Virus record (IMG/VR): IMGVR_UViG_644736364_000004
Direction: 5' to 3' (one strand)
Source of the DNA: a virus
Lineage: Duplodnaviria; Heunggongvirae; Uroviricota; Caudoviricetes
DNA: 41,621 bases
Shown here in pieces: positions 38,974-41,040 of this stretch; positions within the stretch are counted from its first letter, which is position 1, and the number at the start of each line of letters is the position of its first letter. Made by a program: the position numbers and the translations under genes. Below the pieces are notes generated by a model. That model was not told the origin of the DNA. It made no database searches and was given only the letters and a program-made list of their open reading frames with translations.

Positions 38974-41040
38974 GTGAATATGGCAGTACAGATTTCAGGC
39001 GTGCTGAAAGACGGTGCAGGAAAACCGATACAGAACTGCACCATTCAGCTCAAAGCAAAACGTAACAGCACCACGGTTGTGGTGAACACGGTGGCCTCAG
39101 AAAATCCGGATGAAGCCGGACGTTACAGCATGGATGTCGAGTATGGCCAGTACAGCGTTATCCTGCTGGTTGAAGGTTTTCCGCCTTCACATGCCGGGGC
39201 CATCACCGTGTATGAGGATTCTAAGCCGGGGACATTGAATGATTTTCTGGGCGCTGCAACAGAAGATGATGTTCGTCCGGAGGCACTGTATCGTTTTGAA
39301 AAGATGGTGGAAGAGGTGGCACGCAACGCTGAAGCCGCCTCTCAGAGCGCAGCGGCAGCAAAGAAATCAGAAACAGCAGCGGCATCGTCCAGGAATGCGG
39401 CGAAAACATCAGAGACGAATGCAGGTAACAGCGCGAAAGCGGCAGCTTCTTCAAAAACAGCCGCACAAAACGCAGCAACAGCGGCAGAACGTTCAGAGAC
39501 AAATGCCCGTGCGTCAGAAGAAGCCTCCGCAGACAGTGAAGAGGCTTCCCGCCGTAATGCAGAGTCAGCCGCTGAAAATGCCGGAGTCGCCACCACAAAA
39601 GCGCGGGAGGCCGCAGCAGACGCAACAAAGGCCGGGCAGAAAAAGGATGAGGCTCTGTCGGCAGCGACACGGGCTGAAAAGGCGGCAGACCGCGCAGAAG
39701 TCGCAGCGGAAGTGACTGCAGAGCCCTATGCGAATATAGTGCCGCCGCTGCCTGATGTGTGGATACCGTTTAACGATTCACTGGATATGATTGCGGGTTT
39801 TTCTCCGGGCTATAAAAAAATAGCTATTGGTGACGATGTGGTTCAGGTCGCCAGTGATAAACAGGTTAATTTCAGTCGCGCATCAACGGCAACATATATC
39901 AACAAATCTGGCGAACTGAAAACGGCGGAAATTAATGAGCCGCGATTTGAGTGTGATGGCCTGCTTATTGAGGGACAAAGAACGAACTACATGCTCAATT
40001 CGGAAAGTCCAGCCAGCTGGGGGAAGTCATCAAACATGGATGTGCCCGAAACCGGGACAGATAGTTTTGGTTTTACTTATGGAAAGTTTGTCTGCAACGA
40101 TTCTCTGGTTGGGCAAACTTCGGCTATTAATATGGCATCAATTGCTGCAACAAAGTCAGTTGATGTCTCAGGCGATAACAAGTACGTGACAACCTCATGC
40201 CGTTTTAAAACAGAACGACAGGTAAGGTTACGTATACGGTTTGATAAGTATGATGGTAGTGCAACAACTTTTCTTGGCGATGCGTACATTGATACGCAAA
40301 CGCTTGAAATTAATATGACAGGTGGGGCTGCCGGCAGAATTACGGCACGAGTCAGGAAGGATAAGACCACAGGCTGGATTTTTGCAGAGGCAACGATTCA
40401 GGCAATTGATGGTGAGTTAAAAATAGGCTCTCAGATACAGTATTCTCCTGAGCGGGGTGGGGCAACAGTATCTGGTGACTATATTTATCTTGCCACCCCA
40501 CAAGTAGAGAATGGGCCGTGTGTATCATCATTTATTATTTCAGGAGGCAGCGCAACGACAAGAGCCAGTGATTTGGTTAGTATCCCCACCAGAAATAATC
40601 TTTATAAGTTACCATTTACTTTTTTACTTGAGATTCATAAAAACTGGGATATTGCACCAAACGCCGCACCCCGCGTGTGGGATATAGCAGCAGCCAATAC
40701 CGGGCAATCAGCAATTGCAGCAATCAACAGAGGTAGTGGTAAGTTATATATGAGTCTGTCAAACCCTTCAGGCTTGTATGTTAATAGCGCAGCGACAGAT
40801 GTATTTGCAGAGAAAACCACATTTGGATGTATTGCAAAAGCTGATGGTCACTTTCATGTGGTGACAAATGGTAAAGCGGTTAATGAAGTTTATTGTGAAT
40901 ATAATGGTGTGACCGCTGATAAAAATATCCGATTTGGAGGGCAGACGAATACTGGAGAACGACATCTGTTTGGCCATATTCGCAATTTCCGCATATGGCA
41001 TAAAGAATTAAATGACAGGCAATTAAAAGAGGTCGTATGA
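38974..41040 (+). CDS. stf: Side tail fibre protein (Stf-like N-terminus, distinct C-terminal domain), 688 aa
   Basis: N-terminus MAVQISGVLKDGAGKPIQNCTIQLKAKRNSTTVVVNTV… resembles lambda Stf; Ala/Ser-rich repetitive shaft; the C-terminal ~430 residues are unrelated to lambda Stf and end in a lectin/LamG-like-looking motif (GHIRNFRIWHKELNDRQL). Confidence 0.8.
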   Translation: MNMAVQISGVLKDGAGKPIQNCTIQLKAKRNSTTVVVNTVASENPDEAGRYSMDVEYGQYSVILLVEGFPPSHAGAITVYEDSKPGTLNDFLGAATEDDVRPEALYRFEKMVEEVARNAEAASQSAAAAKKSETAAASSRNAAKTSETNAGNSAKAAASSKTAAQNAATAAERSETNARASEEASADSEEASRRNAESAAENAGVATTKAREAAADATKAGQKKDEALSAATRAEKAADRAEVAAEVTAEPYANIVPPLPDVWIPFNDSLDMIAGFSPGYKKIAIGDDVVQVASDKQVNFSRASTATYINKSGELKTAEINEPRFECDGLLIEGQRTNYMLNSESPASWGKSSNMDVPETGTDSFGFTYGKFVCNDSLVGQTSAINMASIAATKSVDVSGDNKYVTTSCRFKTERQVRLRIRFDKYDGSATTFLGDAYIDTQTLEINMTGGAAGRITARVRKDKTTGWIFAEATIQAIDGELKIGSQIQYSPERGGATVSGDYIYLATPQVENGPCVSSFIISGGSATTRASDLVSIPTRNNLYKLPFTFLLEIHKNWDIAPNAAPRVWDIAAANTGQSAIAAINRGSGKLYMSLSNPSGLYVNSAATDVFAEKTTFGCIAKADGHFHVVTNGKAVNEVYCEYNGVTADKNIRFGGQTNTGERHLFGHIRNFRIWHKELNDRQLKEVV
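39300..39720 (+). repeat. Low-complexity Ala/Ser/Glu-rich coding repeats within the tail-fibre shaft
   Basis: Reiterated SETNA…SA…AA… units; this region generates the spurious overlapping ORFs on both strands (39221-39715). Confidence 0.5.

Follow-up and report, generated by a model that had tools for sequence, protein, structure and literature searches.

The phage 21-type side tail fibre of a lambdoid prophage, its predicted lectin-like tip and a conserved partner gene

What might a lambdoid side tail fibre recognise when it keeps a lambda-type attachment end and continues into a C-terminal region unrelated to that of lambda? The question is raised by the side tail fibre gene (stf) of a Caudoviricetes virus, IMG/VR record IMGVR_UViG_644736364_000004, whose whole stretch of 41,621 nucleotides (nt) was analysed and is called the window here. 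An initial annotation, made from the letters alone, had proposed a host-range module swap in this gene. Lambdoid phages are expected to have mosaic tail fibres, and the swap is an ordinary example of phage host-recognition exchange. The analysis identified the gene as phage 21's allele of the lambdoid side tail fibre; it is intact and common and has been catalogued before. The explanation we prefer, to which we assign as a whole a rough probability of 0.68, is that the phage 21-type fibre consists of a collar, a stalk and a glycan-binding, lectin-like tip, with the product of the adjacent gene orf92 as the partner of this tip. Coordinates of all features are collected in Table 1.

Identity and distribution of the fibre gene

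For the DNA between positions 38900 and 41621, identity was 100% to Escherichia phage 21 (OL657228, 19154-21875) and likewise to phage ev017; PhiR63_2 reached 99.9%. The comparison with phage 21 covers the terminator, stf and two further genes, orf92 and orf97, and the region holds no difference. In the phage 21 record, stf is annotated as 'side tail fiber', the counterpart of orf92 (41037-41315) as 'hypothetical protein' and that of orf97 (41328-41621) as 'putative membrane protein', past which the sitABCD moron comes next. Outside the stf region, the closest relative of the window was PhiR63_2, an ECOR-derived phage, and not phage 21. Judging from these identities, the stf allele is the standard phage 21 one and is not peculiar to the present prophage. 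A single cluster at 90% identity contains 2232 member sequences of the protein, and at least 80% of the DNA from the C-terminal module of stf to orf97 was found in 452 of 5426 complete Escherichia coli genomes, in which the RefSeq name of the protein is 'phage head spike fiber domain-containing protein'. The E. coli genomes with any match had a median of three matching places per genome. The genome announcement of phage 21 (PMC9119081) does not discuss the fibre, and functional work was not found in the literature on phage 21 side fibres and on concanavalin A (ConA) or laminin G (LamG) domains in Stf.

The initial annotation had placed the gene at 38974-41040, as does the open reading frame (ORF) listing, where a forward-strand frame begins with GTG at 38974. 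The ORF is real, but its start was off: the true start is the ATG 6 nt downstream, at 38980, which aligns with the 'MAVKISG' of lambda Stf and with the phage 21 annotation. The translation from this ATG, MAVQISGVLKDG, is collinear with that of lambda Stf, MAVKISGVLKDG. In the late operon, the gene follows J, which encodes the central fibre, and this is the position of a lambdoid Stf. The ORFs and the hairpin at 38940-38969, at whose matching site the phage 21 record annotates a terminator, also bear out the earlier description of J followed by a terminator and then stf, with no lom.

Collar and stalk

The N-terminus of Stf matched the Pfam family 'prophage tail fibre N-terminal' (PF08400; 230 bits, E 1e-68), and 83 of the 94 residues of the collar (88%) were identical to the solved lambda Stf (PDB 9e7m, E 1e-49; also 9mgh). 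Identity to lambda Stf was about 86% across amino acids (aa) 1-117, a stretch slightly longer than the roughly 110 lambda-like residues first described, while DNA homology to lambda was confined to 38963-39329. In Ur-lambda, 12 copies of the Stf collar domain encircle the gpV/gpM junction, and four trimeric fibres arise from them (PMC12617516). This 12-copy, four-trimer attachment is presumably the same in the phage 21-type Stf.

The Ala/Ser-rich repetitive shaft reported initially was recognisable both in the composition of aa ~119-250 (36% Ala, 12% Ser, 12% Glu) and in a heptad periodicity, with residue autocorrelation peaking at lags 7, 14, 21 and 28. This stalk follows the collar as the coiled coil of a lambdoid Stf does, is weakly similar to the lambda stalk and, from its repeat pattern, is probably a trimeric coiled coil. 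The coiled coil of lambda Stf spans residues 102-393 (PMC12617516); the stalk described here is about half as long as lambda's proximal coiled coil.

Fold of the C-terminal module

A BLASTP comparison of aa 253-686 with lambda orf-314, the C-terminal half of lambda Stf, gave no similarity and hence no gp37/orf-314-like domain, in agreement with the earlier statement that the last ~430 residues are unrelated to lambda Stf. An AlphaFold2 prediction based on 19 close homologues was unusable (predicted local distance difference test [pLDDT] of 49) and was replaced by one based on an alignment of 59 diverse homologues (pLDDT 94, predicted template modelling score 0.91). The resulting model has an N-terminal beta 'neck' and then two beta-sandwich domains with the ConA-like fold, and ends in a jelly roll and a short helix. 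Structure prediction and a Foldseek search of this region, the check proposed with the initial annotation, returned tandem jelly rolls at high confidence.

Sequence comparison placed the first of these domains in the family of gene transfer agent (GTA) head spike fibres (NCBIfam NF048003; aa 329-529, 55.3 bits against a curated cut-off of 36). Moreover, aa 297-543 aligned in a sequence search to Rcc01080 of the Rhodobacter capsulatus GTA (RcGTA; PDB 6tb9_F3, E 1.4e-9). The second domain (aa 560-681) matched Laminin_G_3 (PF13385) with an E value of 5e-5 and 23.9 bits, under the gathering score of 27.6, and a precomputed PF13385 match is present in some close homologues. The LamG/concanavalin-like ending noticed initially was thus below threshold by sequence and was confirmed by the predicted fold. 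As modelled, the module is a pair of tandem ConA-like, lectin-type jelly rolls, the first of which is homologous to the capsule-binding fibre of RcGTA.

Structure comparison of the module gave its highest score with domain 4 of the arabinanase AbnA (20.3), followed by the Hcn domains of botulinum and tetanus toxins (16-19), a baseplate protein of phage Pa193 (17.8), a cyanophage tailspike (15.7), sialic-acid-binding modules of family CBM40 (14-15), and pentraxins and laminin-G domains (12-14). With Foldseek, the two-domain arrangement recurred in the Pa193 and E217 baseplate proteins and, in the BFVD database, in many phage proteins named 'tail fiber' or 'ConA-like' (TMq up to 0.95). No Pfam match to Peptidase_S74 or another intramolecular chaperone was obtained for Stf at E ≤ 0.1. 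Neither such a chaperone nor a standard Stf domain nor a fusion of unrelated ORFs, which the initial annotation had listed as findings that would count against its proposal, was encountered.

Rcc01080 (GhsB; PDB 6tb9/6tba) shares the motifs EPRF..LLxE..TN and QxE.G..SS.I..TRAxD with the window's module. In RcGTA, the head fibre is a flexible, distally placed appendage whose ligand is capsular polysaccharide (PMC7296036, PMC10218006), and within the NF048003 comparison such binding is known for RcGTA only. Unlike the phage 21-type Stf, Rcc01080 has 325 aa, is a single subunit in a pentameric capsid spike held via an Ile/Leu-Gly repeat peptide, and has no second LamG-like domain, collar or stalk.

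Mobility and variability of the module

The same module was found on another type of fibre in a P2-like myovirus prophage, in which the gene past gpI has a 146-aa P2 gpH-type N-terminus (PF12571) followed by the phage 21 module. The DNA of this prophage was 87.8% identical to the window from position 39738 (aa 253, 'PPLPDVWIPF') through both downstream ORFs. The collar and the stalk had GC contents of 51.8% and 57.4%, the module and orf92 of 43.5% and 42.7%, and orf97 of 53.1%. The low value of about 43% across 39736-41315, in a setting of 52-57% (J, the first two parts of stf, and orf97), suggests that the module and orf92 have an origin distinct from that of their neighbours. Exchange was also seen inside the module. 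The lambdoid Lambda_2E9 was 93% identical to the window over 38900-39989 and 94% identical over 40929-41621 by blastn and could not be aligned in between, where the core of the module (aa ~338-650) was 44% identical at the protein level. Across 211 homologues, per-position entropy marked aa 255-340, 501-535 and 661-686 as conserved and aa 341-500 and 536-655 as variable.

These comparisons indicate that the module is horizontally mobile and is exchanged at two nested boundaries, and a hypervariable core between conserved flanks is, as a sequence pattern, the signature of a receptor-binding domain. The P2-like junction at aa ~253, the drop in GC content and the core exchange among lambdoid relatives uphold the host-range module swap first proposed for this gene. 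An exhaustive profile-free search (E ≤ 1e-3) found the module in 2883 clusters at 50% identity; it always formed the C-terminus, and the proteins were 400-4244 aa long. The N-termini that carry it are of lambda-collar, P2 gpH, T5 Ltf, T1-like and rV5-like types. Among cultured phages, it was present in lambdoid, T1-like, T5-like, Dhillonvirus, Queuovirinae and rV5-like coliphages, with distant relatives in phages of Aeromonas, Rhodobacter and Synechococcus, and a scan of genome contigs for the module gave 6 loci.

Some copies of the locus bear traces of further events. In the P2-like prophage (GCA_031791655), a 74-aa Caudo_TAP remnant lies just downstream of the module-orf92-orf97 cassette (L006 8612-8836) and marks the site where the original gpH tip and gpG were replaced. 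In Lambda_4C10 (L003 5010-7674), 4A7, 1W and 3W, an IS66-type insertion sequence (IS) with three 'mobile element' ORFs lies near codon 643 of the same stf allele, and an IS3-family element interrupts stf in the chromosome of E. coli FDAARGOS_1301 (H184). Such interrupted copies are natural knock-outs of the fibre tip, and the IS-truncated isolates show that the fibre is dispensable for laboratory propagation, as in lambda PaPa.

orf92, a conserved partner gene

The initial annotation had described tfa as absent. This holds in that neither orf92 nor orf97 showed similarity to lambda Tfa or matched Caudo_TAP (PF02413), but the fibre is not partnerless, as the conserved orf92, whose start overlaps the stf stop codon, had been missed. 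Homologues of orf92 (phrog_1361/pVOG7707) hold the same position behind the module in each of the phage families sampled: in the P2-like prophage, T1-like tonn, Dhillonvirus KarlBarth, Seuratvirus KurtStettler and SA126VB, T5-like IrisVonRoten and L6jm, and rV5-like naswa (41% identity, E 7e-18). In two Aeromonas prophages with 30%-identical modules, the orf92 homologue stands one small gene further on (BLASTP E 8e-10). In lambdoid relatives, orf92 was 91-97% identical where the module was only 42-44% identical.

A sample of 80 IMG/VR loci, retrieved with an orf92 profile, gave a similar picture. The module was directly upstream of orf92 in 79/80 loci, the single exception being IS-disrupted, and modules of 42-100% identity stood next to orf92 copies of 91-100% identity. 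The ratio of nonsynonymous to synonymous substitution rates (dN/dS) of orf92 was about 0.3, from small counts, which points to purifying selection. No match to orf92 was obtained in Pfam, NCBIfam, PDB sequences or PADLOC with either the single sequence or the profile, and all 857 relatives found in a protein database search are named 'hypothetical'. Nonetheless, that orf92 and the module stay together over such a range of phage lineages speaks for a direct link in function. On this gene order, the module is never partnerless, being accompanied by the translationally coupled orf92, and orf92 is probably a dedicated assembly or accessory factor of the module.

In comparison, the Stf/Tfa system of Ur-lambda (orf-401/orf-314/orf-194) occupies the same place after J and shares the collar and an Ala/Ser-rich coiled-coil stalk. 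Unlike Ur-lambda, the phage 21-type fibre has no hinge, no gp37-like distal six-chain coiled coil and no OmpC-binding tip, and its locus has a double ConA-like tip and a different small partner gene in place of Tfa, and no lom. A second point of comparison is Gp22 of the Tequintavirus IrisVonRoten (described with a 'galectin-like domain', PMC11990801), which, together with T1-like, Dhillonvirus, Queuovirinae and rV5-like fibres, carries a module 37-57% identical to that of the window. In IrisVonRoten-type fibres, the orf92 homologue comes next with the same ATGA overlap as in the window; these phages differ in having other N-terminal anchors, mostly a distal fibre past orf92, and no orf97.

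In the Aeromonas prophages, the small gene between the module fibre gene and the orf92 homologue is an ORF of 76-92 aa with the sequence CCxQHDxDYG (L012 6218-6496, L013 6185-6415). We take this sequence to resemble the catalytic motif of phospholipase A2, and no family match was obtained for the ORF.

Proposed function of the fibre and alternatives

Under the preferred explanation, Stf would trimerise through its stalk to give four fibres per virion, as in Ur-lambda, and each fibre would end in three independently folded lectin heads, or twelve per virion. The heads would bind a surface polysaccharide, such as O-antigen, lipopolysaccharide (LPS) core, capsule or a glycan of the enterobacterial common antigen (ECA) type, reversibly and multivalently. 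Glycan binding could speed adsorption and carry the phage through the glycan layer before J engages the terminal receptor. Specificity would reside in the hypervariable core, and recombination in the conserved segments on either side could alter it. Because the tip is predicted to be a globular beta-sandwich and not an interdigitated trimer of the gp37 type, it would need neither Tfa nor an intramolecular chaperone, and the co-translated orf92 may serve as the dedicated assembly or accessory factor.

The receptor is probably a surface glycan. A comparable division of labour is known from the lambdoid Salmonella phage Gifsy-1, whose Stf was shown by experiment to bind an LPS-core sugar as the primary receptor while J binds porins (PMC12312913); the likeness drawn here is one of role. 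Four points weigh against our explanation. No binding, adsorption or host-range data were found in the literature for the phage 21-type fibre. Some enzymes and protein-binding domains also have the ConA-like fold. Lambdoid phages can form plaques without side fibres and IS-truncated isolates occur, so that viability is no guide to function. Finally, ten relatives carry an additional distal fibre and a related fibre of the BASEL collection has been modelled as proximal, whereby docking of another fibre could be the primary role of the module.

This last point underlies the alternative that survives best, although we consider it doubtful. Here, the module and orf92 would mainly form a docking platform, a socket without a plug, for a distal fibre whose gene the phage 21-type locus has lost or which it borrows in trans from a co-resident prophage, and the window would encode a proximal fibre that lacks a head and by itself does little in receptor recognition. 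In 10 sampled loci (L008, L010, L011, 2G7b, IrisVonRoten, tonn, KarlBarth, KurtStettler, L6jm and SA126VB), a distal fibre gene follows about 10 nt past orf92, so that module fibre, orf92 and distal fibre stand in this order. The encoded protein is variable (98-586 aa), and 10/10 start with M[AVT]TxTxIPxDIxxLK, while the remainder is unrelated in length and domain content; some, such as that of L008, end in intramolecular-chaperone-like sequence. The shared start may be an attachment 'plug', as its conservation suggests. In line with docking, the homologue Gp22 of IrisVonRoten was modelled as a 'proximal fiber' with the T-shaped Gp24 attached (Humolli et al., PMC11990801). The median of three matching places per matching E. 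coli genome would likewise suit this alternative.

In the window, the motif M.T.T.IP.DI..LK was absent from all six frames of the 41.6 kb, and orf97 directly follows orf92. Of a two-component lateral fibre like those of IrisVonRoten, L6jm and 2G7b, the window therefore holds the module fibre and orf92, and no distal fibre gene. This order, referred to as 'type B' (orf92 then orf97, with no distal fibre), was also found in phage 21, ev207, 2E9, PhiR49_2 (in which lom is present), PhiR41_1 and P2-like prophages, and in 77/77 IMG/VR loci with enough downstream sequence among the 80, and the distal-fibre motif was found in 0/80. As it is common to many phages and IMG/VR loci, the type B order is not a result of local decay. 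The virulent rV5-like myovirus naswa also has the module and orf92 with no distal fibre, so that this arrangement, which is the rule for E. coli phages of the temperate kind (80/80 IMG/VR loci), extends to a virulent phage. Further arguments against a pure docking role are the purifying selection on orf92 in loci free of a distal fibre, the hypervariable body of the module, which is unexpected for a docking surface, and the suggestion by the BASEL authors that the 'galectin-like' domain is an additional receptor-binding domain (PMC11990801). From these gene orders, we take the module and orf92 to be sufficient as a pair and a distal fibre to be an optional extra, with docking as a live alternative. 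The branched LtfA/LtfB fibre of DT57C was considered as a model and rejected, as it uses a different junction, of the phiEco32 gp14/gp15 type.

A broader version of the docking idea, which we raise as a tentative and rather improbable possibility, is that the module and orf92 act as a 'socket' in at least six phage lineages and take up interchangeable distal fibres via their N-terminal peptide of about 16 residues. The phage 21-type fibre would then represent the socket-only state, functional by itself as a lectin-tipped fibre and yet able to capture the distal fibres of co-resident prophages. If true, such capture would change host range without recombination.

A second alternative is that the module, like lambda Stf with OmpC, recognises an outer-membrane protein instead of a glycan. 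Porins are indeed bound by lambda Stf and by T-even fibres (PMC12617516), the structurally similar Hc region of botulinum neurotoxin acts in binding of a protein receptor as well as gangliosides (according to PDB titles), and LamG and pentraxin domains are often protein binders. However, among sequence relatives whose ligand is known, the nearest binds capsule polysaccharide, carbohydrate-binding modules lead the structural matches, and lateral fibres of the T1, T5 and Dhillonvirus types that carry the module are considered glycan binders (PMC8594841, PMC11990801). We therefore hold a protein receptor to be unlikely.

Still further from what we expect is that the module is an enzyme and, as a glycanase or lyase of the ConA-like glucanase superfamily, breaks down surface polysaccharide in the manner of a tailspike. 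A set of polar residues (R, E, N, Q, E, R, N) is invariant over 59 sequences at about 25% identity and lies within the motifs EPRFE..GLLIEGQRTN and PQVE..SSFI..TRAxD, which speaks for an enzyme. Yet these motifs belong to a framework common to the RcGTA fibre, a described binder, the best-scoring matches are non-catalytic binding domains, and no glycoside hydrolase or lyase family was matched in Pfam or NCBIfam; catalysis is thus very improbable. Lastly, an assembly chimera or a decaying pseudogene could be suspected from the abrupt fall in GC content and from the point where lambda-like sequence gives way to unrelated sequence, but this is refuted by identical full-length genes in the independently sequenced phage 21 (Illumina and Sanger, PMC9119081), ev017 and PhiR63_2, by the size of the 90%-identity cluster and the share of E. 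coli genomes with the locus, and by an intact module with a high-confidence model.

In practical terms, the locus offers a template for fibre engineering: its natural junction, at aa ~253 (PPLPDVWIPF), and its inner cassette, at aa ~338-650, indicate where lectin-type tips could be grafted on lambda-type or P2-type fibres without Tfa, provided that orf92 travels along. The significance for the window itself is small, with modest interest in orf92 and in the plug-like start of the distal fibres.

Neighbouring genes and further observations

TABLE 1 Features of the stf region of the window and distal fibre genes of related loci (the latter in the coordinates of each locus)
Feature	Position	Strand	Basis or remark
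J	35439-38921	+	Upstream of stf
Intrinsic-terminator-like hairpin and T-run, between J and stf	38940..38969	+	8 bp stem, 6 G-C pairs
Shine-Dalgarno GGAG	38971..38974	+	5 nt upstream of ATG; ribosome-binding site annotated in phage 21
stf, side tail fibre, 686 aa	38980..41040	+	100% DNA identity to phage 21 CPT_21_22 (UMO75437.1)
Collar (virion-attachment) domain, aa 1-94, lambda type	38980..39261	+	PF08400
Linker and Ala/Ser-rich heptad-repeat stalk, aa 95-252	39262..39735	+	
Mobile C-terminal module, aa 253-686: conserved neck and two predicted ConA-like jelly rolls	39736..41037	+	
GTA head-spike-fibre-type domain, aa 329-529	39964..40566	+	NCBIfam NF048003
Hypervariable module core, aa ~338-650	39990..40928	+	Swapped among lambdoid relatives with 93-94% identical flanks
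LamG/Laminin_G_3-like second jelly roll, aa 560-681	40657..41022	+	PF13385, fold
orf92, 92-aa acidic protein	41037..41315	+	phrog_1361; start overlaps stf stop (ATGA)
orf97, small membrane protein, two hydrophobic helices	41328..41621	+	phrog_1443; hydropathy
Distal fibre gene, L008	6632-7672		
Distal fibre gene, L014	5289-7013		
Distal fibre gene, L015	3792-4466		
Distal fibre gene, L016	3770-4066		
Distal fibre gene, L017	3789-5321		
Distal fibre gene, L018	3792-4829		
Distal fibre gene, L021	3289-5019		
Distal fibre gene, L022	3278-5038		

Upstream of stf, the DNA of J was 94% identical to that of lambda J up to position 37935 and 73% identical or without detectable similarity thereafter (37936-38921), and the J protein, 28 aa longer than that of lambda, was 83% identical overall. 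The divergence from 37936 onwards suggests that the receptor-binding end of the central fibre also differs from that of lambda. Inside stf, the phage 21 record annotates a CII-binding site (ttgyN6ttgy) that matches window positions 39465-39478 on the minus strand; this annotation is a pattern match alone and may be due to chance.

Among the sampled phages, orf97 was found only in temperate ones (lambdoid, P2-like and the P22-like Gally), always as the last gene of a fibre or tailspike operon, and its dN/dS of 0.1-0.2 indicates strong purifying selection. No match to orf97 was obtained in PADLOC, Pfam or NCBIfam. A role of orf97 as a necessary part of the fibre cassette was rejected, as phage Gally carries a homologue past its P22-type tailspike without the module or orf92, and the GC content of orf97 differs. 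From this distribution, orf97 is probably an independent end-of-late-operon moron of temperate phages and not a fibre component; to assign it a role in superinfection exclusion or in the envelope is speculative. The stop codon of orf97 is also the exact end of the window and of many IMG/VR prophage predictions.

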